Notes under the pieces: model-generated
What the model was told of the DNA's origin: nothing
Databases searched by the model: none
The model's input: the letters and a program-made list of their open reading frames with translations, nothing else
Assembly (NCBI RefSeq): GCF_913774665.1
Contig: NZ_CAJYHN010000008.1
DNA: 64,000 bases
Direction: 5' to 3' (one strand)
DNA from: an uncultured Microbacterium sp.
Lineage (GTDB): Bacteria; Actinomycetota; Actinomycetes; Actinomycetales; Microbacteriaceae
Made by a program: the position numbers and the translations under genes
Shown: piece by piece, positions 5,724 to 23,856 of the stretch
How the letters are laid out: the number at the start of each line of letters is the position of its first letter
Position numbering within the stretch: position 1 is the first letter of the stretch

Positions 5724-5782
5724 CCGGAGGCAAGGGCGGCACCGATGTCGGGGGTCCGTGGCACCATGGCCGCATGCCGGAG

Positions 5783-6637
5783 ATGCCAGAGGTCGAAGGG
5801 CTCGTCGAGTACCTGCGCGGGCGCGTGACGGGTCTGCGGGTCGACAAGGCCACCGTGTCGGCCATCAACGCGCTCAAGACCTACGACCCGCCGCTGGCGG
5901 CCCTCGTCGGCGCGCGCATCACCGGCATCGAACGCCACGGCAAATTCGTCGACGTGGCCTCCGATGCCGGCATCCACCTCGTGTTCCACCTCGCCAAGGC
6001 GGGGTGGCTGCGCTGGTACGACGCCCTGCCCACGACGATCATCAAGCCCGGAAAGACACCGATAGCGCTGCGCGTGGGCTTCGACGACGGCTCGGGATTC
6101 GACCTCACCGAAGCCGGGACGAAGAAGTCGCTCGCCGTGTACGCCGTGCACTCCCCCGCCGAGGTGCCGGGTATCGCGCGGCTGGGTCCCGATCCGCTGA
6201 GCGAGGGCTTCGACCGAGCGACGTTCGGGTCGCTGCTCGAGGGCCGTCGCACGCAGATCAAGGGCGTGCTGCGCGATCAGTCGATCATCGCGGGGGTCGG
6301 CAACGCCTACTCCGACGAGATCCTGCACGCCGCGAAGATGTCGCCGTACGCCCTGGCGGCGAATCTCACGGATGCCGAGGTCGACCACCTCTACGCCGCG
6401 ATGACGACGACGCTGGCCGAGGCGATCGACGCGGCTCGCGGCAAACCCCCGGCAGAGCTGAAAGATGCCAAGCGCCGCGGCATGCGCGTGCATGGGCGGC
6501 GGGGCGGGGCGTGTCCGGTGTGCGGCGACGAGGTGCGCAGCGTGTTCTTCGCCGACAACTCCCTCGAGTACTGCCCCACCTGTCAGACCGGCGGCAAGAT
6601 GCTCGCCGACCGTCGACTGTCGCGTCTGCTCAAGTGA
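5783..6637 (+). CDS. Fpg/Nei family DNA glycosylase / AP lyase
   Basis: MPEVEG N-terminus (Pro2 nucleophile) and a C-terminal zinc finger CPVCG...CPTCQ. An upstream in-frame ATG at 5774 is possible but would bury the catalytic Pro. Confidence 0.85.
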   Translation: MPEVEGLVEYLRGRVTGLRVDKATVSAINALKTYDPPLAALVGARITGIERHGKFVDVASDAGIHLVFHLAKAGWLRWYDALPTTIIKPGKTPIALRVGFDDGSGFDLTEAGTKKSLAVYAVHSPAEVPGIARLGPDPLSEGFDRATFGSLLEGRRTQIKGVLRDQSIIAGVGNAYSDEILHAAKMSPYALAANLTDAEVDHLYAAMTTTLAEAIDAARGKPPAELKDAKRRGMRVHGRRGGACPVCGDEVRSVFFADNSLEYCPTCQTGGKMLADRRLSRLLK

Positions 6638-6764
6638 CTGCTCCGCGAGACGCTCCGAGCCACACGCAGCGCTACGAGGCCGCAGAGAAATACCACGAAA
6701 CGTCGCTCTATGACCGGGAATGAAACCGCAAGAGGCACGTTGACTAGGATCAGAAGTGCAAAAA

Positions 6765-6909
6765 CGTGCTCCGGGGTCGGTGAGAATCCGAACCGGCGGT
6801 GACAGTCCGCGAACCCCTCCGCTCACGCGGTGGGGCCGATCCGGTGGAATTCCGGGACCGACGGTGATGCGAGGGTCAGCCCCCGCTAGTCCGGATAGGA
6901 GGCAGCACG
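6765..6909 (+). promoter_or_regulatory. FMN riboswitch (RFN element)
   Basis: Conserved cores GGGGTCGGTGAGAATCCGAACCGGCGGTGACAGTCCGCGAACCC and GATCCGGTGGAATTCCGGGACCGACGGT...AGTCCGGATAGGAG. The P1 helix pairs CGTGCTCC with GGAGGCAGCACG. It lies directly upstream of ribD. Confidence 0.9.
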
Positions 6910-6920
6910 GACGGCGCGAC

Positions 6921-6960
6921 GCGCCTTCCCGCTGGCCCTGCCCCGAATCCGCGGGAAGGA
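6921..6960 (+). promoter_or_regulatory. Candidate SD-sequestering hairpin (riboswitch expression platform)
   Basis: CTTCCCGC (6924-6931) is complementary to GCGGGAAG (6951-6958). This overlaps the GGAAGGA Shine-Dalgarno 8 nt before the ribD ATG. Confidence 0.5.
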
Positions 6961-6967
6961 CTGGGAA

Positions 6968-8041
6968 ATGGCATCCGCCGTCGAGATCGACGCCATGCGG
7001 CGAGCGTTGCAGCTCGCCCGGCGCGGCCCGCGCGGGCTCAACCCGCAGGTGGGCGCCGTGATCCTCTCGCCCGCGGGTGAGGTACTCGCCGAGGGCTTCC
7101 ACCGCGGAGCAGGAACCGCGCATGCCGAGGTCGACGCGCTGTCGCAGCTCGCTCCCGGTGCAGCGCGTGGCGCCACCGCCGTGGTCACCCTGGAGCCGTG
7201 CAACCACACCGGTCGCACGGGTCCGTGCGCTGTCGCGCTCATCGAGGCGGGCATCGCGCGCGTGGTCTACGCGCTCGACGACCCCACCGACGCCGCAGCC
7301 GGCGGAGCCGACCGCCTGCGCGCAGCCGGCGTCGACGTCGAAGCGGGGCCCGACGCGGAGTCCGCCGCAGCGCTGGTCGCCGACTGGACGCACCTGCAGC
7401 GCACCGGCCGCCCGCACGTCACGGTCAAGTGGGCGCAGAGCCTCGACGGTCGCGCCGCCGCCGACGACGGCACGAGCCAGTGGATCACCGGCCCCGATGC
7501 CCGCCGCGACGTACACGCGCGCCGCGCCCGCGCCGACGCGATCGTGGCCGGCACCGGCACCGTGCGCTCCGACGACCCCGCGCTGACCGCGCGTGCCGAC
7601 GACGGATCGCTGCTCGAGGGCCAGCCGATGCCCGTCATCATCGGCGAGAGCGAGACGGCTCCGGATGCCGCCGTGCGCCGCCACCCGCGCGCCCCCCTGT
7701 TTTACGCGACGCACGACCTGCATGCGGTGCTCGCCGATCTCGCCGAGCAGGGCGTGCAGCGGGTGTTCGTCGAGGGTGGACCGACCCTCGCGAGCGCGTT
7801 CGTGCGCGAGGGCCTCGCCGACGACCTGCTCGTGTACGTCGCGCCCGTGCTGCTGGGCGGTTCGCGCCTCGCGCTGGGCGACGTCGGCGTGCCGAGCATC
7901 GACGCGGCGAAGCGTCTGTCGGTGGCATCCGTCACCTCCCTCGGCGATGACCTGCTGCTCATCGCCCGCCCGGTCGAGACCACCCCTCGACGCCCCGAGC
8001 CTGTGCCCGCGCTCGCGGGAGAGAACGAAGGAGACGCCTGA
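6968..8041 (+). CDS. ribD: Bifunctional diaminohydroxyphosphoribosylaminopyrimidine deaminase / 5-amino-6-(5-phosphoribosylamino)uracil reductase
   Basis: CMP/dCMP deaminase zinc motif (HAEVDAL...TLEPCNHTGRTGPC) followed by a RibD_C reductase domain. First gene after the FMN riboswitch. Confidence 0.95.
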   Translation: MASAVEIDAMRRALQLARRGPRGLNPQVGAVILSPAGEVLAEGFHRGAGTAHAEVDALSQLAPGAARGATAVVTLEPCNHTGRTGPCAVALIEAGIARVVYALDDPTDAAAGGADRLRAAGVDVEAGPDAESAAALVADWTHLQRTGRPHVTVKWAQSLDGRAAADDGTSQWITGPDARRDVHARRARADAIVAGTGTVRSDDPALTARADDGSLLEGQPMPVIIGESETAPDAAVRRHPRAPLFYATHDLHAVLADLAEQGVQRVFVEGGPTLASAFVREGLADDLLVYVAPVLLGGSRLALGDVGVPSIDAAKRLSVASVTSLGDDLLLIARPVETTPRRPEPVPALAGENEGDA

Positions 8042-8697
8042 TGTTCACCGGAATCGTCGAAGAGATCGGCGCTGTCACGGCCGTCGAGCCCGCGGGCGAC
8101 GGCGTGCGGCTGACGCTGCGCGCCCCGCTGTCGGTATCGGACGCCGGCCATGGCGACTCGATCTCGGTGAGCGGCGTGTGCCTCACCGTCGTCGACCAGG
8201 GCGACGACTGGTTCACCGCCGATGTGATGAAGCAGACCCTCGACATGTCGACGCTCGCCGACGTCGCCCCGGGCCGCCCCGTCAACCTCGAGCGCGCGAC
8301 CGCCGCGCACGGCCGCCTGGGTGGGCACATCGTGCAGGGCCACATCGACGGCACCGGTGTGGTGCGGGAGGTGCGGCCCGGGGCACAGTGGAGCGTCGTG
8401 CGCGTCGGCATCCCGGCCCCCCTCGCGCCGCTCGTGGTCGACAAGGGCTCGATCGCGATCGACGGCGTCTCGCTCACCGTCAGCGCCGTGAGCGAGGCCT
8501 CCGAGCCCGAGCCGTGGCTCGAGGTCTCGCTCATCCCCGAGACCCTCGAGGCCACGACGCTCGGGCGCGCCGAAGCCGGCACGCCCGTGAACCTCGAAAC
8601 CGACATCCTGGCCCGTCATGTCCAGCGCATGCTGGCCTTCCGCACGACAGAGAATCCCGCGGCGACCGCCGCACAGACCGAGAGGGGCTCCGCATGA
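8041..8697 (+). CDS. ribE: Riboflavin synthase alpha chain
   Basis: MFTGIVEEIG N-terminus and duplicated lumazine-binding repeats (SISVSGVCLTV, SIAIDGVSLTV). The start overlaps the ribD stop (TGATG). Confidence 0.95.
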   Translation: MFTGIVEEIGAVTAVEPAGDGVRLTLRAPLSVSDAGHGDSISVSGVCLTVVDQGDDWFTADVMKQTLDMSTLADVAPGRPVNLERATAAHGRLGGHIVQGHIDGTGVVREVRPGAQWSVVRVGIPAPLAPLVVDKGSIAIDGVSLTVSAVSEASEPEPWLEVSLIPETLEATTLGRAEAGTPVNLETDILARHVQRMLAFRTTENPAATAAQTERGSA

Positions 8698-9962
8698 GCC
8701 TGTCCACCATCCCCGAGGCCCTGGAGGCCCTGCGTCAGGGGCGGCCGATCCTGGTCGCCGACGATGAGAACCGCGAGAACGAGGGCGACGTCATCATCTC
8801 GGCGCAGCTCGCGACCCCCGAGTGGCTCGCCTGGACCGTCCGCTGGTCCAGCGGATACGTCTGCGCCCCCATGCCCGCCGAATGGGCCGACCGCCTCGAC
8901 CTGCCGCCCATGGTCGAGGTCAACCAGGACGCCCGCGGCACCGCGTACACGGTCAGCGTCGACGCGGCATCCGGAGTCACCACCGGTATCAGTGCCGCCG
9001 ATCGCGCGCGCACCCTCAACGTGCTGGCCGACCCCGACTCGGTTCCGATCAGCCTCATCCGCCCCGGCCACGTGCTACCGCTGCGCGCCGTCGACGGCGG
9101 GGTCCGCGAGCGCGCGGGCCACACCGAGGCCGCGGTCGACCTCATGCGCCTCGCCGGGCTGGAGCCCGTGGGAGCGATCGCCGAGGTCGTCGCCGAGGAC
9201 GGCAGCATGATGCGTCTGCCGGGACTCTTCGAACTCGGTGAGCGCGACGGCATCCCGGTCATCACGATCGAGCAGCTCATCGGCTACCTCAACGAGACCG
9301 ATCCGCTGCCGGCGACCGCCGCGCCCAAGCGCCGCGTGAGCCTGCGCGCCGAGTCGAACGTGCCCACCTCGCACGGCACCTTCCGCTTCCTGGCCTATAA
9401 GGACCGCGTCACCGGCACGGATCACCTCGCGGTGGTCTCGGGCGACCTCACCGAGACAGCACCTCTCGTGCGCGTGCACTCGGAGTGCCTGACGGGAGAG
9501 GCGTTCGGCTCGCTGAAGTGCGAGTGCGGACCCCAGCTCGAAGCCGCGCTCGACACGATCGACCGCGACGGCGGCATCGTGATCTACATGCGCGGTCACG
9601 AGGGTCGCGGCATCGGCCTCATCAACAAGCTGCGCGCGTACAACCTGCAGGAACGCGGTATGGACACGGTGGATGCCAACCTCGCCCTCGGCCTCCCCGC
9701 CGACGCGCGCGACTACGCGGCCGCCGCCGGCATCCTGACCGACCTCGGTGTCGAGCAGGTGCGTCTGCTCACCAACAACACCGACAAGGTGAACCAGCTG
9801 CGCGGCTTCGGTCTCGACGTCGTCGAACAGGTGCCGCTGCTCGTGGGCGTCGGCCCGAACAACCACCAGTACCTCGAGACGAAGCGCGACCGCATGGGTC
9901 ACATCATCGCCGAGGACGACCTGCGCGACGCCCTCGCGCACATGAAGGAAGAGAGCGCCTGA
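8694..9962 (+). CDS. ribBA: Bifunctional 3,4-dihydroxy-2-butanone-4-phosphate synthase / GTP cyclohydrolase II
   Basis: DDENRENEGDVI (DHBP synthase) and VRVHSECLTGEAFGSLKCECGPQL (GCH II zinc site). ATGA overlap with ribE. Confidence 0.95.
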   Translation: MSLSTIPEALEALRQGRPILVADDENRENEGDVIISAQLATPEWLAWTVRWSSGYVCAPMPAEWADRLDLPPMVEVNQDARGTAYTVSVDAASGVTTGISAADRARTLNVLADPDSVPISLIRPGHVLPLRAVDGGVRERAGHTEAAVDLMRLAGLEPVGAIAEVVAEDGSMMRLPGLFELGERDGIPVITIEQLIGYLNETDPLPATAAPKRRVSLRAESNVPTSHGTFRFLAYKDRVTGTDHLAVVSGDLTETAPLVRVHSECLTGEAFGSLKCECGPQLEAALDTIDRDGGIVIYMRGHEGRGIGLINKLRAYNLQERGMDTVDANLALGLPADARDYAAAAGILTDLGVEQVRLLTNNTDKVNQLRGFGLDVVEQVPLLVGVGPNNHQYLETKRDRMGHIIAEDDLRDALAHMKEESA

Positions 9963-10435
9963 TGGCCGGCAGTGGAGCACCCGAGACCGGCGGTATCGAC
10001 GCCTCCGGACTGAACGTCGTCGTCATCGCCGGCACCTGGCACGAGGTGATCACCGACGGTCTCATCGCCGGGGCGAAGCGCGTGCTCGACGCCACCGGCG
10101 CGACCTCCCGCGTCGTGCGCGTGCCGGGCTCGTTCGAGCTGCCCGTCGCCGCGCGCGCGGCGTTCGAGGGAGGGGCGGATGCCGTGGTCGCGCTGGGCGT
10201 GATCATCCGGGGCGGGACGCCGCACTTCGAGTTCGTCTCGTCGGCGGCCACCGACGGCCTGACCCGCGTGGCCCTCGACGCCGGCAAGCCGGTCGGCTTC
10301 GGCGTGCTCACGCTGGATGACGAGCAGCAGGGCCTCGACCGCGCAGGCCTCGAAGGTTCGAAGGAGGACAAGGGCGGGGAGGCCGCGGATGCCGCGATCC
10401 GCACCGCCCTCGTGCTACGCGAGCTGCGCGGCTGA
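9962..10435 (+). CDS. ribH: 6,7-dimethyl-8-ribityllumazine synthase
   Basis: VVIAGTWHEVITDGL...VPGSFELP...GVIIRGGTPHFEFV motifs. ATGA overlap with ribBA. Confidence 0.95.
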   Translation: MAGSGAPETGGIDASGLNVVVIAGTWHEVITDGLIAGAKRVLDATGATSRVVRVPGSFELPVAARAAFEGGADAVVALGVIIRGGTPHFEFVSSAATDGLTRVALDAGKPVGFGVLTLDDEQQGLDRAGLEGSKEDKGGEAADAAIRTALVLRELRG

Positions 10436-10446
10436 CGCTTCGACTC

Positions 10447-10483
10447 AACGGGCTCGGTGACCTCTGCGGTCGCCGAGCCCGTT
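10447..10483 (+). terminator. Hairpin downstream of the rib operon
   Basis: AACGGGCTCGG (10447-10457) pairs with CCGAGCCCGTT (10473-10483). There is no clear U-tract. Confidence 0.45.
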
Positions 10484-10620
10484 CTCGTCGGCGGGACGGG
10501 CGGAGGTGGGTGAGCCGGTCGAAGCCACCGGTCACACGGGTCCCCAGGGGGGCTCAGGGAAAAGCACGGTGAGGCCCGCCTTGCTGGCGGTCGGCACCCG
10601 GCATCCCTACCCTGACCGGT

Positions 10621-10974
10621 ATGGAGATCCTGCGCAGCGTCGTCGTCCTCGTCCACCTCGTCGGTTTCGCCATCCTCTTCGGCGCGTGGGTCGTCGAGGC
10701 CGTCAGCCGCCGGGCACGCGTCACCTCGTTGATGAACTACGCCCTCCTCATCTCCCTGGTCACGGGTCTGGCGCTCTCGGCGCCGTGGGGCCTCGACCAC
10801 GACCTCAACTACGCCAAGATCGGCATCAAGCTGGTCGTGCTGATCATCATCGGTGCGCTGCTCGGCATCGGTTCGGCCCGGCAGAAGCGCAACGGATCGC
10901 TGTCACCGGCGATCTTCTGGCCGATCGGCATCCTGGCTCTGCTCAACGCCGGTCTCGCAGTGATCTGGCACTGA
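10621..10974 (+). CDS. Small integral membrane protein (4 predicted TM), unknown function
   Basis: 117-aa ORF with four hydrophobic segments and coding-like GC3. No family recognised. Confidence 0.6.
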   Translation: MEILRSVVVLVHLVGFAILFGAWVVEAVSRRARVTSLMNYALLISLVTGLALSAPWGLDHDLNYAKIGIKLVVLIIIGALLGIGSARQKRNGSLSPAIFWPIGILALLNAGLAVIWH

Positions 10975-11153
10975 CGACGCCGCCCGTCGGCATCCACTCA
11001 GCGCGCGCATAGACTGGAGGGTCTAGCGCCCCTCACTCGGGGACGTTTCCGGTGCTCCCTCGCGCACCCGTTCACACACACCCCCGTGATCGCGGCGCGC
11101 CACCGCTGCGCCCCACCCCGGACGCGATTGATCGACCTTCTCGTCAGGCAGTC

Positions 11154-12605
11154 ATGACCACCTCCTCCCCCTCCACCCGATCCGCTGCGGCCCCCGCGAA
11201 CCCCCGTTCGCGCGTCATCACCGCGAGCCTCATCGGCACCACGATCGAGTTCTACGACTTCTACGCGTACGCCACCGCGGCAGTCCTCGTCTTCCCGATC
11301 CTCTTCTTCCCGACCGGCAACGAGACCACCTCGCTGCTGTTGTCGTTCAGCGTCTTCGGCGCTGCGATGGTCGCGCGACCCCTCGGCGCCGTCGTCTTCG
11401 GCCACTTCGGCGACCGCTTCGGGCGCAAAGCGACCCTCGTGGCATCCCTTCTCACGATGGGTGTCGCGACCTTCCTCATCGGCTGCCTCCCGACCTTCAA
11501 CGAGATCGGCGTCTGGGCCGCGGTGCTGCTGCTGATCCTGCGCCTCGCGCAGGGCTTCGCCCTCGGCGGCGAGTGGTCGGGCGCCGCGCTGGTCGCCACC
11601 GAGAACGCTCCGAAGGGCAAGCGCGCCCTGTTCGGCACGTTCCCCCAGCTGGGCGCGCCCATCGGCTTCATCATCGCCAACGGCATCTTCTTGTTCATCA
11701 ACTTCGCGCTGCCGCACCCGGACGGGACGGCGCAGCGCTCGGCGGAGTTCCTCGCCTGGGGCTGGCGCGTGCCGTTCCTGTTCTCGGCCGTGATGGTCAT
11801 CGTGGGCCTGTGGGTGCGCCTCAAGCTCGTCGAGAGCGAGTCGTTCGCGAAGGCCGAGAAGAGCGGCGTGATCCGCAAGTTCCCGCTCGGCGAGGTCATC
11901 CGCCGCAATTGGAAGCAGCTGATCCTCGGCACGTTCATCATGCTGGCGACCTACGTGCTCTTCTACCTCATGACGAGCTTCACGCTCTCGTACGGCGCCA
12001 AGGCCACCCTGGAGGGGGCTCAGGCCGCCGCCGAGAAGGCGGGCACGGCATTCAACGCGGCCGAGTACGTGCCGGGCCTGGGCTACGGCTACACCGACTT
12101 CGTGATCATGCAGATCGTCGGTGTGGTGTTCTTCGGCATCTTCACGATGCTGTCGGGCCCCATCGCCGACCGGATCGGCCGCAAGCGTCTGCTCATCGGC
12201 GTCACCGCCGCGATCATCGTCTTCGGTCTGACGTTCTCGTTCTTCCTGGTGCCGCACGCCGACCCGGGCGTCACGCGCATCCTGGTGCAGTCGTTCCTCA
12301 TCCTCGGGTTCCTGCTCATGGGAGCGACCTTCGGACCGATGGGCGCGGTGCTGCCGGAGCTCTTCCCGACCAACGTGCGCTACACGGGGTCGGCGATCTC
12401 GTACAACGTGTCGTCGATCCTCGGAGCGGCCCTCGCCCCGATCGTCGCGGTCGCGCTGTGGGCGGCCGGTGGCGGCAACCCGTGGCTCGTGGGCGTGTAC
12501 CTCTCGGCGATGGGCGTGCTGACCCTGATCGCGCTCATCCTCTCGCCCGAGACGAAGGACGTCGACTACGACGAGAACATCGCCGCGGGGGCGACCGCGC
12601 CGTAA
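11154..12605 (+). CDS. MFS transporter, metabolite:H+ symporter (MHS) family
   Basis: IGTTIEFYDFYAYATAA, GHFGDRFGRK and LRLAQGFALGGEWSGA motifs match ProP/KgtP/ShiA-type permeases. ATG at 11154 is chosen inside listed ORF 11052..12605. Confidence 0.85.
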   Translation: MTTSSPSTRSAAAPANPRSRVITASLIGTTIEFYDFYAYATAAVLVFPILFFPTGNETTSLLLSFSVFGAAMVARPLGAVVFGHFGDRFGRKATLVASLLTMGVATFLIGCLPTFNEIGVWAAVLLLILRLAQGFALGGEWSGAALVATENAPKGKRALFGTFPQLGAPIGFIIANGIFLFINFALPHPDGTAQRSAEFLAWGWRVPFLFSAVMVIVGLWVRLKLVESESFAKAEKSGVIRKFPLGEVIRRNWKQLILGTFIMLATYVLFYLMTSFTLSYGAKATLEGAQAAAEKAGTAFNAAEYVPGLGYGYTDFVIMQIVGVVFFGIFTMLSGPIADRIGRKRLLIGVTAAIIVFGLTFSFFLVPHADPGVTRILVQSFLILGFLLMGATFGPMGAVLPELFPTNVRYTGSAISYNVSSILGAALAPIVAVALWAAGGGNPWLVGVYLSAMGVLTLIALILSPETKDVDYDENIAAGATAP

Positions 12606-12849
12606 CGCGTCCGTTCTCGAGACCGGATGCCACGGGGCCCAGGCCTCGTGGCATCCGTCGTCCATGCCGAGGGCGATCGAGCGAGCGGGCGGCGATCCGG
12701 AAAATCCGAGCGTTCGGGGCGCCGGAGTCCCGGATCGACAGGCGACGGGGCAATTTCTCCGGAGTTTCGCACGCCGTCGAACGGACCGGCCGGCGGTGTC
12801 GGTGGCCCGGGGTACGGTCGAAGCACCCCATTTTCTTCCCGAGGTGAGC

Positions 12850-14718
12850 ATGTCGTTTCCCGCTCCCGCGCGTGGTCGGCGCGGCCGCCGCGCGCCCGAA
12901 GGCCCGCGCGCGTCGTTCCGTCAGCTGGTCCCCTTCCTGCTCGAGCACAAGCGCACGCTCGCCGTGGTCGCGGTGCTCAGCGTGCTGGGCGCCGCCGCCA
13001 CGCTCGCGCAGCCGCTCCTCGTGGGCGAGGTCATCTCGCGCGTGCAGAACGCGGTCCCCCTCGGCGCCCTGGTCTGGCTGCTCGTCGCCTTCGTCGTGTT
13101 GTCGTCGGTCATCTCCGGCTTCCAGCACTACCTGCTGCAGCGCACGGGCACGGCGGTGGTGTACTCGTCGCGACGCCGCCTGATCGCGCGGATCCTGCGA
13201 TTGCCGGTCAGTGAATTCGACGCGCGGCGCACCGGCGACCTCGTCTCGCGCGTGGGCACCGACACCACGCTGCTCTACGCCGTCCTCACGCAGGGATTCG
13301 CGGATGCCGTCGGCAACGCCCTCATCCTCCTCGGCGCCGTGATCGCGATGGCCTTCATCGACCCCCTTCTGCTGGGGCTGATCGTCGTGGTCGTGGGCGC
13401 CTCCCTCGCGCTCGTCGTCCTGCTCAGCACCCGCATCCGTGCGGCATCCGCCGATCAGCAGGCCAAGGTCGGCGAGCTGTCGTCGGGCGTCGAGCGGGCG
13501 GTGGGTTCGATCCGCACGATCCGCGCCGCGGGCGCGACCGAGCGCGAGATCGCCGCCGTGACCGAGAACGCCACCGCGGCCTACGCCGCCGGGGTCCGCA
13601 TCGCGCGGGTCTCCGCGCTCATCGTCCCGGTCGCGTTCGTGGCCCTGCAGGTGTCCTTGCTCGTGGTGCTGGGCGTCGGCGGATACCGCGTGGCATCCGG
13701 GGCCATCGACGTCGCCTCGCTGGTGACGTTCGTGATCTTCCTCTTCCTGCTCGTCCAACCCCTCGCCTCGGCCATCGGGGCGATCACGTCGGTGAATCAG
13801 GCGCTCGGCGCGCTCGGACGCATCCAGGAAGTACTCGACCTCCCCCTCGAAGACGACGGCGACCGGCCCACAGGGTCGGCGGCGATCCCGGATGCCGCGG
13901 CGATCGTGTTTCAAGATGTGCGCTTCCGCTACCCCGAGCACGTCGTCAAGGCGCGCGAAGCGGCGGCCGCGGAGGCGCGATCGGTGCTCGCCGGGGCGCA
14001 CCTCGATGCGACCGATCCGACGCCCGCCGAGACCGACCACGAGGTGCTGCGCGGAGTGTCGTTCGCCGTGCCGCGCGGTGCGCGGGTCGCCCTCGTCGGA
14101 CCGTCCGGGGCGGGGAAGAGCACGATCCTCTCGCTCGTCGAGCGGTTCTACGACCCGACCGCGGGAGCGATCCTCGTCGACGGCGTCGACGCGCGCGACC
14201 TCTCCCGCGACGACCTGCGCGCGCGCTTCGGCTACGTCGAACAGGACGCTCCCACCCTCGCCGGCACGATCGCCGACAACCTGCGACTGGCCTCGCCCGA
14301 TGCCTCCGACGCCGACTGCGAGCGCGTGCTGCGCGAAGTGAACCTCGGCGACGTGCTCGAGCGCAACCCGCTCGGCGTCGATGCCCCGGTCGGCGAAGAC
14401 GGCGTGATGCTCTCGGGCGGGGAGCGTCAGCGTCTCGCGATCGCGCGGGCGCTGCTGGCCGCGCCTCCCGTGCTGCTGCTCGACGAGTCGACCTCGTCGC
14501 TCGACGGGGTGAACGAACAGCGCATGCGCGAGGCCATCGACGCCGTGGCGACCGGTCGGACGCTCCTCGTCATCGCGCACCGCCTGTCGACCGTCGTCGA
14601 CAGCGACCTGATCGTCGTGCTCGAGAACGGCCGCGTCGTCGGCCAGGGCACGCACAGTGAGCTCGTGGCATCCACCCCGCTCTATCGCGACCTCGCGAAG
14701 CATCAGCTGCTGGTGTAG
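12850..14718 (+). CDS. ABC exporter, fused permease/ATPase (MsbA-like type I exporter)
   Basis: Six-TM N-terminal domain. Walker A GPSGAGKST, signature LSGGERQR and Walker B LLLDEST are present. Confidence 0.9.
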   Translation: MSFPAPARGRRGRRAPEGPRASFRQLVPFLLEHKRTLAVVAVLSVLGAAATLAQPLLVGEVISRVQNAVPLGALVWLLVAFVVLSSVISGFQHYLLQRTGTAVVYSSRRRLIARILRLPVSEFDARRTGDLVSRVGTDTTLLYAVLTQGFADAVGNALILLGAVIAMAFIDPLLLGLIVVVVGASLALVVLLSTRIRAASADQQAKVGELSSGVERAVGSIRTIRAAGATEREIAAVTENATAAYAAGVRIARVSALIVPVAFVALQVSLLVVLGVGGYRVASGAIDVASLVTFVIFLFLLVQPLASAIGAITSVNQALGALGRIQEVLDLPLEDDGDRPTGSAAIPDAAAIVFQDVRFRYPEHVVKAREAAAAEARSVLAGAHLDATDPTPAETDHEVLRGVSFAVPRGARVALVGPSGAGKSTILSLVERFYDPTAGAILVDGVDARDLSRDDLRARFGYVEQDAPTLAGTIADNLRLASPDASDADCERVLREVNLGDVLERNPLGVDAPVGEDGVMLSGGERQRLAIARALLAAPPVLLLDESTSSLDGVNEQRMREAIDAVATGRTLLVIAHRLSTVVDSDLIVVLENGRVVGQGTHSELVASTPLYRDLAKHQLLV

Positions 14719-17006: not shown

Positions 17007-18446
17007 ATGGCTTCGACGTTCGAACTCGCGACCCTGGGGCATCGCATCCGTCATCACCGTTTGGCGCGTGGTCTGACGCTCGATGAGCTGGGAGCCCTGG
17101 TCGGTGTCGCGGGAAGCCAGTTGAGCCTCATCGAGAACGGCAAGCGAGAGCCCAAACTGTCACTCCTGCAGGAGATCGCGCGGGCGACCGAGACCGAGGT
17201 GACCGAGCTCCTCTCGCGGGAACCCCCGAACCGCCGCGCGGCCTTGGAGATCGAGCTCGAGCGCGCCCAGACCAGTCCGTTCTTCCGCCAGCTCGGCATC
17301 CCGCCGGTGAAGGTGACCAAGGGGACGAGCGACGACACGATCGAGGCCGTCCTGGGGTTGCACCGCGAATTGCAGCGCCGCGAGCGCGAGACGATCGCGA
17401 GTCCCGAAGAGGCCCGGCGCGCCAACACCGAGTTGCGCTTGCGCATGCGCGAGACCGGGAACCACCTCCCCGAGATCGAACGCCTGGCCGAGAAGCAGCT
17501 CAAGGCGGCGGGGCACAGCACCGGGGCCCTCACCCACCGCACGGTCAGCATCATGGCCGAGCAGTTGGGGTTCGAGCTGATCTACGTGAGCGACCTGCCT
17601 CACTCGGCGCGCTCGGTGACCGACCTCGAGAACGGGCGGATCTACCTGCCCCCGGCCTCGATCCCGGGCGGCCACGGACTGCGGTCGATGGCCCTGCAGG
17701 CCATGGCGCACCGCCTGCTCGGTCACCGCCCGCCCACCGATTACGCCGACTTCCTGCAGCAGCGGCTCGAGATCAACTACTACGCCGCGTGCTGCCTCAT
17801 GCCCGAGACGTCGGCGGTGGCCTTCCTGACGCAGGCGAAGAAAGACCGCAACCTCGCGGTCGAGGACTTCCGCGACGCGTTCGGAGTGACCCACGAGGCC
17901 GCGGCCATGCGGATGACGAACCTCATGACGACGCATCTCGGCATCCATCTGCACTTCTTGCGCGTCGACGGCGACGGCGCGATCTCACGCGTCTACGAGA
18001 ACGACGGCCTTCCCCTGCCCACCGACGTGACGGGGAGCGTCGAAGGACAGGTGGTCTGCAAGAAGTTCTCGGCGCGGTCCGCTTTCGCCGAGCACAACCG
18101 CACCACCGAGCACTACCAGTACACCGACACCCCCGCGGGCACATTCTGGTGCTCGACGCAGACCGGCACAACGCGCGAGGGCGACTTCTCGATCACGGTC
18201 GGCGTGCCGTTCGACGACGCGCGCTGGTTCCGTGGGCGCGAGACCTCGAAGCGGGGCATCTCGCACTGCCCCGACGAGTCGTGCTGCCGCCGCCCCGACA
18301 CCGAAGCCGCGCAGCGCTGGCAGGGCAAGGCGTGGCCGAGCGCGCGCGTTCACCGGCACATGTTTTCACCGCTCCCGCGGGGCATGTTCCCGGGTGTCGA
18401 CGACGCCGAGGTTTTCGCCTTCCTCGACCGCCACGCCGGCGACTGA
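17007..18446 (+). CDS. XRE-family HTH regulator with DUF2083/ImmA-like C-terminal region (RamB/PrpR-like)
   Basis: N-terminal HTH LTLDELGALVGVAGSQLSLIENGKREP. The long C-terminal domain with a cysteine cluster (CPDESCCRRP) is typical of short-chain fatty acyl-CoA regulators. Divergent from pckG. Confidence 0.8.
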   Translation: MASTFELATLGHRIRHHRLARGLTLDELGALVGVAGSQLSLIENGKREPKLSLLQEIARATETEVTELLSREPPNRRAALEIELERAQTSPFFRQLGIPPVKVTKGTSDDTIEAVLGLHRELQRRERETIASPEEARRANTELRLRMRETGNHLPEIERLAEKQLKAAGHSTGALTHRTVSIMAEQLGFELIYVSDLPHSARSVTDLENGRIYLPPASIPGGHGLRSMALQAMAHRLLGHRPPTDYADFLQQRLEINYYAACCLMPETSAVAFLTQAKKDRNLAVEDFRDAFGVTHEAAAMRMTNLMTTHLGIHLHFLRVDGDGAISRVYENDGLPLPTDVTGSVEGQVVCKKFSARSAFAEHNRTTEHYQYTDTPAGTFWCSTQTGTTREGDFSITVGVPFDDARWFRGRETSKRGISHCPDESCCRRPDTEAAQRWQGKAWPSARVHRHMFSPLPRGMFPGVDDAEVFAFLDRHAGD

Positions 18447-18809
18447 CCGTCACGCGTCGCTGGGCCCCGTATGCCCGCGCACGAAAAGAGCGGCTCAGGC
18501 GGGTGAATTCTCCACACCCGCCACCCGTTAGACGGAATGCCGCGCATAGCGTGATGCGCGCACATATCGCTAAGAAGCGTCTCATCGGTGTCCCACCGTT
18601 CGGCCGCGTCTTTCGACCTTTCACGCACGTCTCGGCGCGCGAGGGAGAACACGAGAGAGGCGAGTGCATCCGATAGGACCTCGTGTCGTCATCATGCCCG
18701 ACCCGTGAGGGATGCCAGTGCCTCGGCCCCCGTATCGGCAACGGTCGAGCGCCCACGGCCGTCTCTTCGGGAGACCCGATCATCCCCGCCATCACCCGAA
18801 GGACAGCAC

Positions 18810-19448
18810 ATGACGACCCCCACCCTCACCCTGCGCAAGCGCACCGCGCTCGTTGCCGCAGTGGCCCTGCTCGCGATCGGCGCCGGCGGCGTCGCCGTAT
18901 CGGGCGCGTACTTCACGGACCAGAAGTCGATCGAGAGCAACTCCGTGGCAACCAGCACGGTGAAGCTCGGCCCGATCGACGGCTCCGACGGCACGACCAA
19001 GCTCACAGTCACCGATCTTCTTCCTCTCCCCAAAGACGACTCGAAAACCATCGCGGATTCGGCGAAGACGTTCCAGGTCGTCGTCAGTAACACGGGTAAA
19101 GCGACGATCGACTGGGCCGCGGCAATTTTTCTGACCTCTGCCCCCGGAACCAACGACAAGCCCTCCGCGGCCGACGCCCTGTACATCTCGTACAGCACCG
19201 ACGGTAGTACGTGGAGCACCGGCGTCACGCTCGCTTCGCTGCTCTCCTCAAAGCAGAGCGGCCTCTCCGGAACGGACCTGGCGAGTGGCGCGAGCAAGAC
19301 CATCTTCTTTCGCGCGTGGCTCCCGTCGACGACCTCGAACACGTATCAAGGCACCTCGGTCACGTTCACGCTGCGGGTGCGGGCCATTCAGACCGGAACC
19401 GCCGGCGGCATCAACGACGACCTCAACTTCGTGACGCTGGCAAAGTAA
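18810..19448 (+). CDS. TasA/camelysin-like secreted protein with SipW-type signal peptide
   Basis: MTTPTLTLRKRTALVAAVALLAIGAGGVAVSGAYFTDQKSIESNSVATSTVKLG: basic n-region, hydrophobic core, then an AYFTD motif comparable to the AFNDIK of TasA. The rest is a beta-rich Ser/Thr-rich body. SD GAAGGA upstream. Confidence 0.75.
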   Translation: MTTPTLTLRKRTALVAAVALLAIGAGGVAVSGAYFTDQKSIESNSVATSTVKLGPIDGSDGTTKLTVTDLLPLPKDDSKTIADSAKTFQVVVSNTGKATIDWAAAIFLTSAPGTNDKPSAADALYISYSTDGSTWSTGVTLASLLSSKQSGLSGTDLASGASKTIFFRAWLPSTTSNTYQGTSVTFTLRVRAIQTGTAGGINDDLNFVTLAK

Positions 19449-19457
19449 GAGCCCACC

Positions 19458-19500
19458 GATTCCGCCCCCGTTGCTCTTCACACGCGACGGGGGCGGAATC
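19458..19500 (+). terminator. Strong intra-operon hairpin (14-bp stem) between the TasA-like gene and the signal peptidase gene
   Basis: GATTCCGCCCCCGT (19458-19471) pairs with ACGGGGGCGGAATC (19487-19500). 15-nt loop. Confidence 0.6.
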
Positions 19501-19525
19501 TCTGTGCCCCGAGCGAGAATCTCAA

Positions 19526-20188
19526 ATGCCCGAACCTTCCCCTCGAACCCATCGCGTGCTGTCTTCGATCCGGTGGGTGTTGGTGGGGCTACTCCTCGCC
19601 GCGATGCTCGCCCCCGCCGTGTACTCGGCGCTCACGCAGACGCAGTTCGTCTCGATCGAGGGCGCCTCGATGGCACCGACGTACGACATTGGCGATCTCG
19701 TCGTCATGGCCCCGCCGACTCCCTCCGACTTTGCCCCGGGGCACGTCGTCACCGTCCGCTCGTCCGACGGCAGCTTGTACACCCACCGCATCGTCTCGGT
19801 CGACGACCGGCAGGCGACGCTGAAGGGCGATGGGAACACCTCGCCCGACCCACAGCCCATTCCTTTCAACGACGTCGTGGGCGCCGTCGCGGGCCATATC
19901 GGTCAGCCGTGGGCCGCGCCGATGACGCTGCTGCTGCAGTGGCCGGTGCGCATCTTCGTCGCGCTGTTCATCATCGGCCTCGTGGTTCTCCCGCTGGGCA
20001 CCTCTCGCGAGACCGCGCACAACGACGCCTCGCCGCCGGGCGAGATCGATGCCGAACCCGACACTCCCCGCGACCGCATCGATGACGAGGAGGCCCGTTT
20101 CGGCCTCGATGATCTCGAACGGTTCGCTCGCCCGCCCGCCCCAGGTTTTCCCATCAACCCGTCACCCAGCGACCAGGAGCGTTCATGA
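19526..20188 (+). CDS. Signal peptidase I, archaeal/ER type (SipW-like)
   Basis: N-terminal TM, catalytic Ser box SIEGASMAPTYDIGDLVV, His box LYTHRIVSV and LKGDGNTSPD. A second TM is followed by an acidic/Pro-rich tail of about 60 aa. Confidence 0.85.
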   Translation: MPEPSPRTHRVLSSIRWVLVGLLLAAMLAPAVYSALTQTQFVSIEGASMAPTYDIGDLVVMAPPTPSDFAPGHVVTVRSSDGSLYTHRIVSVDDRQATLKGDGNTSPDPQPIPFNDVVGAVAGHIGQPWAAPMTLLLQWPVRIFVALFIIGLVVLPLGTSRETAHNDASPPGEIDAEPDTPRDRIDDEEARFGLDDLERFARPPAPGFPINPSPSDQERS

Positions 20189-21543
20189 TACGCGTGCGCA
20201 TATCGAGCCGACCCCGGCGATCGTGGCGAAGGTTGCCCGTCGCCGCTCTCCTCCTCGCCGTTGCAGTCGCAGCCCCGATGACGCCCGGCGCGATGCCCGC
20301 TGGCGCCTATTTCACCGCACAGAAGACGCTGCCTGACAACACACTGACCACGGCGACCCTGCCAAGAGTGACGAACCTCTCCGTACAGGATCTCGGCAAC
20401 GGCATGACAAAGATCAGTTGGGACAACAGCTTGCGCCAAGCCTGGGCTATCGGCAACGGCGTCTCCGGCGTCACATACAAGGTCTTGGGGTGGGGGTGCA
20501 AAATGATGGCGTCTTTCTATTTCTCTGGCATGGCGGACAGAATGGAGATATCCATGAGGTGTCCGGCCAACTCCGGCTTCACAGTCACGTATAGCTATTC
20601 GAATTGGACGTCCCCGGCCGCCTCCAGCAACGTCATCACCGTCGGCACGCACCCTACCGGCATCGCCATCTCGCCCGACGGCAAGAACGTCTACGTCGCC
20701 AATAATGACAGCGGCTCGGTCTCTGTCATCGATGCCGCCACGCACACCGTAGCAGCCACCATCACAATGCCGAGCGGGATGAACCCCGATCAGATCGCGG
20801 TATCCGCCGACGGGTCGAAGCTGTACGCCGTCTTACCGCAGTACTACGGGCCATGGTCAGGCGCGTTGCTCACGATCGACAGCACATCGCGGGAAGTGAC
20901 CAATCTGCTCCCGATTGGGACACTGTACGGCATCACAGCTTCTCAAGGAGGAAGCCTCTACGCCTCAACCTCCGTCGACGCTCACGCGAGCACCCTCTCC
21001 AAATACAACCCGGATGGAGGTCTGGACTTGACCGAGCCAGTGACGGTCGGGGGCCAGCCGAGGGGAGTTGCGGTGTCGACCGACGGCGCGAGGGTCTATG
21101 TCGCAAACAGCGCCGATGACACCGTATCCGTCGTCGGAAGCGCGTGGCTCAACACCCTGGCTACCGTGACCGTAGGTTCCCAGCCGGTGAGTGTGGCCAC
21201 GTCGAGCGCGTTCGCCTACGTCACCAACAGCGGCGACAACACGGTGTCGATCATCGATACGAGCACCGAGACAGTGACAGGCACGGTCATGGTGGGGTTG
21301 AACCCTCAGGCGATCGCCGTCTCCGCCCAGGGGAAAAGCGTTTACGTCGCCAACGCCGGCAGCAACACCGTCTCGGTCATCGATGCCGCACGCAACACCG
21401 TTGTCAAAACCCTGCCGACCGGAAGAACACCATCCGGCATCGCCATCTCCCCCGACGGGGGCACGATCTACGTCACCAACAAAGACGACAGCACCGTCTC
21501 TATCATCCCCACCGGGCGCGCCGAAACGTCGACCACGGGCTGA
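20185..21543 (+). CDS. Secreted YVTN-family beta-propeller repeat protein, paralogue 1 (SipW-type signal peptide)
   Basis: Signal ...AAPMTPGAMPAGAYFTAQK, an N-terminal module of about 100 aa (KISW...W...TYSYSNW), then repeated G.AISPDGK.VYVAN..S.TVSVID units. ATGA overlap with the peptidase gene. Confidence 0.85.
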   Translation: MIRVRISSRPRRSWRRLPVAALLLAVAVAAPMTPGAMPAGAYFTAQKTLPDNTLTTATLPRVTNLSVQDLGNGMTKISWDNSLRQAWAIGNGVSGVTYKVLGWGCKMMASFYFSGMADRMEISMRCPANSGFTVTYSYSNWTSPAASSNVITVGTHPTGIAISPDGKNVYVANNDSGSVSVIDAATHTVAATITMPSGMNPDQIAVSADGSKLYAVLPQYYGPWSGALLTIDSTSREVTNLLPIGTLYGITASQGGSLYASTSVDAHASTLSKYNPDGGLDLTEPVTVGGQPRGVAVSTDGARVYVANSADDTVSVVGSAWLNTLATVTVGSQPVSVATSSAFAYVTNSGDNTVSIIDTSTETVTGTVMVGLNPQAIAVSAQGKSVYVANAGSNTVSVIDAARNTVVKTLPTGRTPSGIAISPDGGTIYVTNKDDSTVSIIPTGRAETSTTG

Positions 21544-21593
21544 GCCGCTGCGGCATCGCCACGAACAGCCACTGAGACCGATGAGAGACACTG

Positions 21594-22952
21594 ATGACCG
21601 CCACCCCAACACGCGCCATTGCCCGCCTCACACGGCGCCTGGCGTTGATCGCCACACTCGCCCTTACCGTTTCTGTCACGCCCGGAGTCACGCCCGCCAG
21701 CGCGTATATGACCGCCGAGAATCTTCAACCTGACAATACTTTTGCTACCGCAGATCTCACCATCGACGACCTCACCGCCACCCGCGACAAGACCGGCATC
21801 ACCACGATCAGCTGGAAGGACGCGACCACACAGCAGTGGGCGAAAGCCAACGGCGTCAGCGGCATCCGTTACACCGCAACGAGCAAGACCGCCGGCGGAT
21901 GCAACGTGACCAACACGACAGAGACCAGCATCACCGGCCAATGGCCCGCCGGCGCCGACTGCACCATCACCTACACCTATGCCGGCTGGACGGCCACCGC
22001 CACCGTCACCGTTCCTTTTCCGACCGTCGACGTCGGAAGCAAGCCCCTAGGCATCGCTATCGCTCCTGACGGCAAGAGCGTCTATGTCGCCAACAGCGCA
22101 AGTGCCTACATCTCCACCATTGCTACGACGAAGCTCGACGTCGGCCAGATCAGCACCCCCGCTGCCACTGGACTGTACGGCGTCGCCGTCACCCCCGACG
22201 GCTCACGATTGTGCTTCACCAGCACGAGTACCACTGTTAACGCAGGCTGGGGCTACAAAGCCACCATCGATCTCGCGAACTCCTCATACCCCGAAACCGA
22301 AGTACGCAGCAGCATGCGCCCATACGGCGTCGCATACTCAGCGCGGTACGACGCGTGCTCCGTTGTGGCAGCATCCACCGATGGTCCGGGCAGCTTTGGA
22401 GCATTAAATCCATTCATCTCTGACCAACCGAGAATACAGCTCGAGAACAATCCGCGAGGATTGACTTTCTCTTCTGATGGCTCCGCCGGATACGTTGCCA
22501 ATTGGGGAAGCGATAGCGTAAGTCGCCTGAACCTGCAAAAAGCGACTGTCGATCGGACGATATACAAACCGGGTTCGAGGCCGACCGGTGTCGCGATAGC
22601 GAAGAGTTTCCTATACGTCACCAACAGCGGCGACGATACCGTCTCCGCGATCGATTCGAGAACGATCTCGCAGGCAAGCCCGACAGTCACCACCATCGAC
22701 GTCGGAAAGAAGCCGGGCGGGATCGCCGTCTCCGCCCAAGGCAAGAGCGTCTACATCGCCAACGCCGGCAGCAACACCGTCTCGGTCATCGACGCCGCAA
22801 GCAACACCGTCGTCAAGACCCTGCCGACAGGGAGAACACCCTCCGGCATCGCCGTCTCCCCCGACGGCGGCACCATCTACGTCACCAACAGAGACGACGA
22901 CACGGTCTCGATCATCCCCACCGGACGCGCCGAAACGTCGACCACGGGCTGA
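21594..22952 (+). CDS. Secreted YVTN-family beta-propeller repeat protein, paralogue 2 (SipW-type signal peptide)
   Basis: Signal ...VTPGVTPASAYMTAEN and the same domain order as paralogue 1. The last 232 nt are nearly identical to those of paralogue 1. Confidence 0.85.
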   Translation: MTATPTRAIARLTRRLALIATLALTVSVTPGVTPASAYMTAENLQPDNTFATADLTIDDLTATRDKTGITTISWKDATTQQWAKANGVSGIRYTATSKTAGGCNVTNTTETSITGQWPAGADCTITYTYAGWTATATVTVPFPTVDVGSKPLGIAIAPDGKSVYVANSASAYISTIATTKLDVGQISTPAATGLYGVAVTPDGSRLCFTSTSTTVNAGWGYKATIDLANSSYPETEVRSSMRPYGVAYSARYDACSVVAASTDGPGSFGALNPFISDQPRIQLENNPRGLTFSSDGSAGYVANWGSDSVSRLNLQKATVDRTIYKPGSRPTGVAIAKSFLYVTNSGDDTVSAIDSRTISQASPTVTTIDVGKKPGGIAVSAQGKSVYIANAGSNTVSVIDAASNTVVKTLPTGRTPSGIAVSPDGGTIYVTNRDDDTVSIIPTGRAETSTTG

Positions 22953-22962
22953 TCCGCCACCC

Positions 22963-23008
22963 GGATGCCACGGCCTGGGCCCTCCACGGCGCCTGGCCCG
23001 TGGCATCC
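22963..23008 (+). terminator. Hairpin downstream of YVTN paralogue 2
   Basis: GGATGCCACGG (22963-22973) pairs with CCGTGGCATCC (22998-23008). Confidence 0.45.
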
Positions 23009-23113
23009 GCTCGCCCGCACGGACCACGAAACGAAACCGACACAGGACGAGACTCTTCACGAAAGTAAAACATTTACATTGGCGGGACACTCACCGACAC
23101 GGAGGCTCCCGAC

Positions 23114-23302
23114 ATGTCACACCTTCGCACCGTCCTGTTCCCCGCCCGCTCGACCGCCGCAACGCCGGCCGTCCCGACCCCCGCAACGCGCCGCGGCCGC
23201 CGGCGCACCGCCGCCGCAGCCGCCGGCGTGCTCACCCTCGCCCTCGCCGTCTCGGGGTGCGCCGCCCCCGCCGCCTCGTCGAGCGACTCCTCCTACGCAT
23301 AG
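23114..23302 (+). CDS. Possible mini-lipoprotein or truncated lipoprotein (62 aa)
   Basis: GGAGG SD 8 nt upstream and an AT-rich promoter-like stretch at 23063-23085. RRGRRRTAAAAAGVLTLALAVSGC has a basic n-region plus lipobox, with only 13 residues after the Cys. Confidence 0.3.
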   Translation: MSHLRTVLFPARSTAATPAVPTPATRRGRRRTAAAAAGVLTLALAVSGCAAPAASSSDSSYA

Positions 23303-23397
23303 GGCACTGTAGGAGGCTTGCTCAGATCCACCGTGGGGTTTCGCCCGACGAACCAGGCAGGCACCCGGGCGCAGCACTACCTCATGACCCGAAGAAC

Positions 23398-23856
23398 GTG
23401 AGCACCGGTAAATACTTCACACTTCCGACGACGCGTTGACGTTTCGCGCACCCACGCAGCCGCCGCAACCCTCATCATCGCTATGGCCCTCGCCTCGACG
23501 ATCGCGCCGAGCACGGCAGCCACCGGCGCCTACATGACCGACGAAAAAGATGCGACAGGCAACACCATCACCGTCGGCTATGGGCTCGCCACGCCCAGCG
23601 AGATCGGCATTTCTGCGTGGAACAGTTCGAGCTATCTCGTCCAATGGACGCAGCCGACCACAACGATCTGGGGGCACCCGCCGGAACGATCTGGGCAAGC
23701 ATAAGCGGTGACGGCTGCTCGGGGAGCTACTACGGCGACCCGAAGTACCGAAGCATGATTGTCAACGGTCCCGCGGGACGGAACTGTCAGCTGTCGTTGT
23801 ATTCGAGCAGTGGATGGAGATCCGCGACCGTCGACTTCACAATCCCGCAGTCATGA
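23398..23856 (+). pseudogene. Decayed third paralogue: signal peptide plus N-terminal module only, at least 2 frame disruptions
   Basis: Three frames read VSTGKYFTLPTTR*, then ...AAAATLIIAMALASTIAPSTAATGAYMTDEKD...VQWTQPTTTIWG, then ...TIWASISGDGCSGSYYGD...SSSGWRSATVDFTIPQS*. The frame switch sits between two copies of AACGATCTGGG (23663 and 23686). Confidence 0.6.

Follow-up and report, generated by a model that had tools for sequence, protein, structure and literature searches.

The stretch of DNA analysed here, referred to throughout as the window, comprises 64,000 nucleotides (nt) of contig NZ_CAJYHN010000008.1 from an uncultured Microbacterium sp., and the subject of this report is a cluster at positions 18810–23856 consisting of four intact genes (g1–g4) and one decayed gene (g5), all on the plus strand (Table 1). 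It appears to be an actinobacterial TasA-type locus in which beta-propeller proteins take a place like that of TapA in Bacillus subtilis or TafC in haloarchaea, and as such would extend existing models of fibre assembly rather than add a new principle. A first-pass annotation, made from the sequence alone, had recognised five same-strand reading frames in a block of lower GC content, and both coordinates and composition agree with that description: GC is 0.61–0.66 over 18.5–24 kb against 0.69–0.74 on either side, a difference of 5–10 points. The intact genes are closely spaced (77, −4 and 50 nt, in order from g1 to g4), the negative value denoting an ATGA overlap between the g2 stop and the g3 start (TTCATGATACGC), through which, as already recognised at first pass, the peptidase gene is translationally coupled to the first propeller gene.

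Table 1. Features of the cluster and its surroundings. Parts are in residues of the predicted proteins unless nt positions are indicated; a slash marks the predicted cleavage site.
Feature	Positions	Strand	Length	Description	Parts
Intergenic stretch 5′ of g1	18447–18809		363 nt	presumed promoter/regulatory region of g1–g4 operon
g1	18810–19448	+	212 aa	probable divergent TasA/camelysin-superfamily subunit	signal peptide 1–33 (VSGA/YFTDQK); putative donor strand 34 to ~54, YFTDQKSIESNSVATSTVKLG; then jelly-roll-like beta-sandwich
g2	19526–20188	+	220 aa	archaeal/endoplasmic reticulum (ER)-type (SipW-type) signal peptidase I
g3	20185–21543	+	452 aa	arm, small beta-sandwich, 7-bladed YVTN propeller	cleavage PAGA/YFTAQK; arm 42 to ~63; two-Cys beta-sandwich ~64–140; YVTN propeller ~149–442
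g4	21594–22952	+	452 aa	g3 paralogue, same architecture	cleavage PASA/YMTAEN; order of domains as g3
Short open reading frame (ORF)	23114–23302	+	62 aa	between g4 and g5
g5	23402–23856	+		pseudogene	split frames at nt 23483–23704 and 23617–23856

Four of the five genes begin with a basic n-region and a hydrophobic core that lead into a common motif, VSGAYFTDQK in g1, PAGAYFTAQK in g3, PASAYMTAEN in g4 and ATGAYMTDEK in g5. That these four N-termini form a set, as had been proposed, is upheld by a count of the pattern A[YW][FM]T: six-frame translation of the complete window gave exactly four instances, one at each of the four N-termini (200 shuffles: mean 0.39, maximum 3). By analogy with TasA, cleavage is predicted at VSGA/YF, PAGA/YF, PASA/YM and ATGA/YM, and all four sites satisfy the small-residue rule at positions −3 and −1. 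Conservation extends past these sites and takes in roughly the first 20 residues of the mature chain (Y-[FM]-T-[DA]-x-K-x4-N-x-h-x-x-[AG]-T-h), a segment referred to here as the arm. A profile of the g1 family matches g3 (E 8e-8), g5 (7.8e-7) and g4 (3e-4), presumably through this N-terminal segment, the sole part that these proteins have in common with g1; for the equivalent protein of a related locus (L023, described below) the match mapped to profile positions 11–56.

TasA is cleaved between A27 and A28, and its residues 28–38 form the donor strand that enters the next subunit (PMC9674648, PMC10151520). When g1 was aligned with B. subtilis TasA, the sequence of which had first been verified against PDB entry 8AUR, both hhalign and MAFFT placed A33-Y-F-T-D of g1 on A27-A28-F-N-D of TasA, and the mature N-terminus of g1 has the aromatic residue (position 2) and the acidic residue (position 4) of a TasA-type donor strand. 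Because conservation continues for some 20 residues past the predicted cleavage site, in register with the donor strand of TasA, the motif is probably more than a peptidase recognition tag; signal peptide and donor strand together are the reading that suits it best. The locus and its relatives suggest, moreover, that what is catalogued as the ‘SipW-cognate signal peptide’ motif doubles as a donor strand. The arm is limited to proteins of fibre loci; among the best 120 YVTN homologues of g3, only g3 and g4 have it. None of g3, g4 and g5 matched the SipW-cognate signal peptide model TIGR04088 at E≤0.1.

The description of the g1 product as TasA-like stands by way of intermediate sequences, but not on the direct thresholds of PF12389 and TIGR04088. 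A word-index protein search with g1 returned just six close clusters; an exhaustive HMMER search with a six-sequence profile of the g1 family retrieved 330 proteins at E≤1e-3 among 1.84 billion representatives. In a sample of 87 of these 330, 53 matched PF12389 (best 4.6e-19), 36 TIGR04088, 24 the TasA model, 15 BsaA and 8 TIGR04089. One intermediate, P0046, was significant in both directions (g1 profile, E 1.3e-10; PF12389, 33.7 bits over positions 3–194 of 196). Superfamily membership can in this way be traced through intermediates, and on this transitive evidence we conclude that g1 is a divergent member of the TasA superfamily, from a subfamily of Micrococcales proteins too distant for the thresholds of current models. 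Searches of PDB sequences with g1 and with its family profile gave chance-level matches only, and a pattern search of GTDB genomes based on the six-sequence alignment gave 74 pattern matches, none of which (0/74) was confirmed by tblastn.

Structural comparison showed a weak resemblance to TasA. The AlphaFold2 model of g1 is a beta-sandwich (predicted local distance difference test, pLDDT, 65; predicted template modelling score 0.64), and among the top 50 Foldseek hits TasA (5of1_B) had the highest template modelling score (0.41/0.45, probability 0.99), although with an E-value of only 0.015; by that measure it is outranked by CUB and PliG sandwiches. Jelly-roll positions conserved in the g1 family include P72, N94-x-G96 and the Q180/Q194 region, and motifs corresponding to these are lacking in g3, g4 and g5.

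The first-pass annotation had also identified the second gene as an archaeal/ER-type signal peptidase I, and this proved correct. The g2 product scored 68.5 bits on TIGR02228 (sigpep_I_arch, cut-off 51.85) and 23 bits on the bacterial LepB-type model TIGR02227, below the cut-off of 47; it is not a SipW equivalog (NF046067, 34.9 bits against a cut-off of 190). It contains a Ser box (IEGASMAPTY, S48), a His box (SLYTHRIV, H87) and the stretch KGDGNTSPD with its GDGN box; all three, and with them residues S48, H87, D102 and D108, were invariant in a three-sequence peptidase alignment (A4). The catalytic role of such Ser and His boxes is established for SipW and Sec11. Hydrophobic segments at about residues 10–37 and 131–162 lie on either side of the catalytic domain and are followed by an acidic, Pro-rich tail. 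To judge from its sequence, g2 is a dedicated archaeal/ER-type peptidase of the Ser-His rather than the Ser-Lys kind, and both homology and synteny in six or more loci suggest that it cleaves the neighbouring pre-proteins.

Beyond the arm, g3 and g4 carry a small N-domain and a propeller, both unrelated to g1. The prediction of two YVTN propellers of 7-blade type was confirmed: the YVTN repeat model TIGR02276 (cut-off 27.85) gave 180.6 bits for g3 and 115.8 bits for g4, and the AlphaFold model of g3 has 28 strands, equivalent to seven blades, with pLDDT >90 in the propeller, 50–67 in the N-domain and a disordered arm. The g3 propeller was matched best by 1L0Q (Foldseek E 6e-20, 40% identity, root-mean-square deviation 1.7 Å over 272 alignment columns). 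Both proteins also match lactonase, YncE and SGL propeller models, and g4 (P0162) is named ‘YncE family protein’ by NCBI; full-length g3 is present in the protein database at 99% identity (P0156). A word-index search with the first 154 residues of g3 (20185–20646) gave zero matches, not even g3 itself, and is uninformative. A lactonase or other enzymatic role for the propellers, mooted at first pass, is not favoured, because the closest structure, 1L0Q, is a non-enzymatic surface-layer (S-layer) YVTN propeller.

The small N-domain is some 80 residues long, has a conserved pair of Cys and ends in a ...T-[VI]-T-Y-x-Y-x-x-W-T motif; it was modelled at low confidence as a beta-sandwich. We call it an unclassified beta-sandwich because Pfam, scanned at E≤10 with this domain from g3, g4, g5 and their relatives, returned nothing significant, the nearest being an fn3 hint (E 0.02) in a Nesterenkonia protein.

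Arm-donating initiators have been described in other TasA-type systems (PMC10151520, PMC9674648, PMC11821415). In the published model, TapA starts the fibre by giving its N-terminal strand to TasA and, because its immunoglobulin fold is already complete, plays no part thereafter (PMC10151520, PMC9674648). In that of the haloarchaeal tafi system, the fibre begins at its tip with TafC, which consists of donor strand, beta-sandwich and distal laminin-G domain; the core is made of TafA and TafE, TafF (jelly roll plus membrane segment) terminates and anchors the fibre, and TafD is the dedicated peptidase (PMC11821415, PMC12337348). Models of TapA/YqxM and related families in NCBIfam and Pfam gave no match to g3, g4 or g5, and the earlier statement that the cluster has no TapA-like gene is therefore right by homology. 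By function, however, it is probably false, since all three genes have the layout of TapA and TafC, in which a donor-strand-like N-terminus precedes a domain other than a jelly roll.

The absence of a sortase signal was borne out. The g1 product ends ...NFVTLAK and those of g3 and g4 end ...IIPTGRAETSTTG, with neither an LPXTG-type motif nor a transmembrane segment, and no sortase gene is found between 17 and 25.5 kb; the cluster lacks these features of sortase-dependent Gram-positive pili.

Related loci were located with the peptidase alignment. The genes had been taken at first pass to form one module, and they are indeed conserved together in Microbacterium sp. 1154, M. testaceum, Nesterenkonia ebinurensis and metagenomic relatives. 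Locus L013, with a g1 75% identical to that of the window, preserves the order g1, peptidase, propeller. The loci of a metagenome (L009), Microbacterium sp. 1154 (L016), M. testaceum NBRC 12675 (L017) and N. ebinurensis (L018) each have one to four TasA-like paralogues and the same type of peptidase, and each encodes a protein with the same arm and small domain, but with an RCC1 propeller inserted in that domain (L009 being also assigned, with L017, to M. testaceum). The propeller protein of L016 bears an added ricin-type lectin tail. Since YVTN and RCC1 propellers are found with the same arm and adaptor, the type of propeller is interchangeable, the arm and adaptor being what belongs to the system.

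Five proteins (P0026, P0031, P0036, P0039 and P0041) combine signal, arm, TasA-like jelly roll and RCC1 propeller in one chain, in most cases with the small sandwich between, and their genes adjoin those of a peptidase and an arm-only propeller protein; such fusions provide a physical link between propeller and fibre subunit. P0026 is encoded in GCA_003097495.1 (positions 1–14279; L023), where two TasA-like genes and one for a peptidase of 459 aa stand ahead of five RCC1-propeller genes in a row, of which 4/5 include a full TasA-like jelly roll and 1/5 the arm only. This array lies directly upstream of the S10 ribosomal protein operon.

In the RCC1 versions (L009 3975–5648(-), L016 2224–4212(+), L018 8451–9905(+) and P0026) the two-Cys sandwich comes in two pieces, a first half ahead of the propeller and the last strands (C...C...Y-x-Y-R-V-S-Y...W-T-S) behind it, at the C-terminus, which makes the propeller an insertion in the adaptor; in the YVTN versions of the window the small two-Cys domain is contiguous. 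A further TasA-like paralogue is present at L009 6570–7262(-), L016 6240–6962(-), L017 6973–7665(-) and L018 7001–7660(+). Its N-terminus has LAATG, LAITG or LPDTG, a transmembrane helix and an Arg-rich stretch, with a second hydrophobic segment and a jelly roll later in the chain; the LPXTG-like motif is kept in all four loci, at a place that is wrong for a sortase sorting signal. It may serve as a membrane anchor in the manner of TafF, and has no counterpart in the window.

Given what the parts are, how the arms align, and the synteny and fusions described above, we infer, largely by analogy with TasA, the following course of assembly. The products of g1, g3 and g4 would be exported and cleaved by g2 after the small-x-small site just before Y-F/M-T, which would bare the conserved N-terminal arm. 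Having both arm and jelly roll, g1 could polymerise by strand donation, head to tail, the arm of each subunit inserted in the next as in TasA. With an arm but no jelly-roll acceptor, g3 and g4 would donate a strand and probably could not receive one, which would put them at the first position of the fibre, where they may nucleate it and form one terminus, the propeller exposed as a binding module, in a role analogous to that proposed for TapA and TafC. The g5 sequence is a dead copy of a minimal subunit made of arm and sandwich. In sum, g1 would be the core subunit, g2 the peptidase, and g3 and g4 initiators or tips with the propeller as exposed head; in relatives, the TafF-like paralogue would complete a polarity of tip, core and anchor (PMC11821415, PMC12337348). 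That the cluster specifies an extracellular TasA-superfamily fibre independent of sortase, with g3 and g4 as arm-only initiators or tips, is the reading that we favour, with moderate confidence.

An alternative, which we hold to be rather unlikely but worth serious consideration, is that the cluster is a private secretion and processing module and nothing else: the motif would be a recognition element for the peptidase, and g3 and g4 would be free or wall-associated propellers, whether binding proteins or enzymes, unlinked to a g1 fibre. TIGR04088 is after all defined as a ‘SipW-dependent-type signal peptide’ and occurs on varied proteins, the propellers match the lactonase, YncE and SGL models, and contact between g1 and g3 is deduced by analogy. 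Recognition by a peptidase would not, however, readily account for some 20 conserved residues past the cleavage site, in the very segment that forms the donor strand of TasA (PMC9674648), nor for the jelly roll–propeller fusions of relatives. Unrelated YVTN and RCC1 propellers, moreover, recur at the same position of the locus with the same arm and adaptor, and the structure closest to the g3 propeller is the non-enzymatic S-layer one.

It is improbable, in our estimation, that the propellers are instead interspersed along the fibre, with the N-domain of g3 and g4 accepting the strand of the next subunit and both proteins being true members of the chain. Such an arrangement would suit the ‘decorated fibre’ envisaged in the first-pass annotation; relatives do encode jelly roll–propeller fusions that could polymerise, and the beta-sandwich formed by the g3 N-domain may be incomplete. 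Yet this domain has about 80 residues, with no match to the g1-family profile beyond the arm, none in Pfam and none of the jelly-roll motifs P72, N94-x-G96 and the Q180/Q194 region, and the presence in L023 of an arm-only protein alongside fusion subunits suggests distinct roles for the two. Least probable of all is that the locus is a decaying, non-functional remnant of a horizontally acquired island, as its lower GC, the g5 pseudogene, the truncated 62-aa ORF and the missing anchor-like paralogue might suggest, given that g1–g4 are intact and tightly spaced, that g2 and g3 are translationally coupled, and that the same arrangement is intact in independent assemblies and in the relative with a g1 75% identical.

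Several observations count against a fibre initiated or tipped by g3 and g4. The g1 product matched no Pfam family at E≤0.1, hence not PF12389 directly, nor the TasA model NF046066, and reached 13.1 bits (E 0.083) on TIGR04088, below the cut-off of 19 bits; its structural model is mediocre, and the E-value of its Foldseek match to TasA is weak. The hhalign comparison of the g1 family with the single TasA sequence was weak (E 0.02) and was used for the N-terminal register only. Position 4 of the arm is Asp in g1 and g5, but Ala in g3 and g4, and co-variation within loci between the arms of tip and major subunits gave no consistent signal. Strand donation by g3 and g4 is proposed by analogy of sequence, and the poorly modelled N-domain of g3 could conceal an acceptor groove. 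Finally, the locus comes from a metagenome-assembled genome, lacks the anchor-like paralogue of its relatives and holds a pseudogene, and it may be a reduced version of theirs.

To our knowledge, the TasA-type fibres so far characterised are those of Bacillus TasA/TapA and a few archaeal systems, actinobacterial members being known as database hits only. The window shares with B. subtilis tapA-sipW-tasA a jelly-roll subunit with a putative donor strand starting from the cleavage site (A/AFNDIK in TasA, A/YFTDQK in g1), a dedicated ER/archaeal-type Ser-His peptidase in the operon, and an accessory protein in which a subunit-like N-terminus is joined to an unrelated fold (TapA on the one hand, g3 and g4 on the other). 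It differs in that g1 fails PF12389, NF046066 and TIGR04088 and g2 falls short of the SipW equivalog model; in that g3 and g4 are unrelated to TapA and have instead a two-Cys sandwich and a YVTN propeller; in the gene order, which is subunit, peptidase, accessory protein; and in the host, an actinobacterium.

With haloarchaeal tafi, the parallels are a donor-strand core, a peptidase of its own and a tip protein made up of donor strand, sandwich and variable distal binding domain (PMC11821415, PMC12337348); relatives of the window locus also have an anchor or terminator with transmembrane segment and jelly roll. The tafi system, on the other hand, is archaeal and dependent on twin-arginine translocation (Tat), its distal domain is laminin-G-like and it includes the DUF5305 accessory protein TafG, whereas neither a DUF5305 gene nor an anchor gene was seen among the cluster genes of the window. 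Loci of the AbpX/AbpA/TasA superfamily resemble the present one in that tip components vary in fold between lineages (bioRxiv 10.64898/2026.01.04.697558; PMC9245690), but the AbpX-linked peptidase has ten transmembrane helices against two hydrophobic segments in g2, and neither propeller tips nor Micrococcales loci are described in the AbpX/AbpA papers. The 7 YVTN blades of g3 are found also in 1L0Q, from a surface-layer protein of Methanosarcina mazei, and in E. coli YncE, both of which differ in having no TasA-type arm and no dedicated peptidase gene adjoining.

Loci of the TasA superfamily in which a TIGR02228 peptidase is accompanied by tip or minor components of varying kind have already been described (bioRxiv 10.64898/2026.01.04.697558), and Actinomycetota have been noted among TasA homologues (bioRxiv 10.64898/2026.01.04.697558; PMC9245690). 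A full-text literature search found no paper that ties SipW or TasA to RCC1 or other propeller proteins, and papers that name Actinobacteria together with SipW and TasA appear, to judge from titles and abstracts, to be reviews or unrelated studies. The idea of an initiator or tip has thus been put forward for related fibres before, but neither with propellers nor in this bacterial group.

TasA-type donor-strand fibres are a matrix and pilus system common to bacteria and archaea. The present data suggest that Actinobacteria build such fibres from a subfamily missed by current Pfam and TIGRFAM thresholds, and that the place of initiator or tip is modular and can take large beta-propellers, YVTN here and RCC1 elsewhere, which would probably serve as ligand-binding heads. 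More tentatively, and with less assurance than attaches to the window cluster itself, we propose that Micrococcales possess an undescribed class of sortase-independent, TasA-type donor-strand fibres, in which initiator or tip subunits, and in some genomes repeating subunits, carry 7-bladed propellers (YVTN or RCC1, sometimes with a lectin) by way of a two-Cys sandwich adaptor (into which RCC1 is inserted) and are processed by a private ER-type peptidase; the products might be adhesive fibres, propeller-tipped or propeller-studded. Were this true, an arm motif without a jelly roll, beside an ER-type peptidase, would constitute a sequence rule for recognising tip adhesins of TasA-like fibres, and M. 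testaceum NBRC 12675 would offer a culturable test system.

In the protein database g1 has a counterpart of 100% identity, annotated as a hypothetical protein of ‘uncultured Microbacterium sp.’, and the same gene order is found on contigs of GCA_913775875.1 and several Logan assemblies. On one side the cluster borders on genes for a GTP-dependent phosphoenolpyruvate carboxykinase (PEPCK) and an XRE/M78-like regulator; at the opposite flank stands an aldehyde dehydrogenase gene. Membership of the system was considered for the regulator (17007–18446) and rejected: its pairing with the PEPCK gene is kept, and related loci have HTH_17, response regulator or LuxR genes instead. A promoter role for the stretch upstream of g1 is only presumed, because a scan for promoter and terminator consensus sequences found nothing above chance level. 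Genomic contexts differ among related loci, with ADC and HTH_17 genes at L009, L016 and L017 and LuxR at L018, and this, together with the lower GC of the cluster, suggests that it moves horizontally among Micrococcales.

The first-pass description of the g5 copy as decayed was accurate, and g5 is a pseudogene. A 23-nt insertion (ACGATCTGGGGGCACCCGCCGGA) at 23663–23685, a repeat of the adjacent ACGATCTGGG, throws the gene out of frame, and the RRR n-region has no start codon upstream of it; the split ORFs are called likewise in an NCBI assembly copy of the locus (L002). With the insertion removed, a single frame of 140 codons reads ...QWTQPTTTIWASISGDGCSG...TIPQS, and an intact product would consist of the arm (ATGA/YMTDEK...) and small beta-sandwich, without a propeller. 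The short ORF upstream of g5 combines a Tat-like RRGRRR with a hydrophobic core and a lipobox (LAVSGC), has a stop soon after, and probably represents what is left of a lipoprotein gene.

The n-regions of the propeller proteins contain RR, for example TRRLAL in g4; Tat-signal models matched none of the window proteins at E≤0.1, and export of the propeller proteins by the Tat pathway is speculation. In L016, a second S24/S26-type peptidase ORF (4337–5695(-)) continues in frame to ...SGWFTAATARPVDSL... and a small beta-sandwich-like region, and represents either a peptidase joined to a substrate of the arm type or two genes merged by a mechanical ORF call. Lastly, g3 and g4 share 45% identity over their full length, but their last 237 nt (21312–21548 and 22721–22957) are 91% identical, which indicates a recent partial gene conversion between the two genes.

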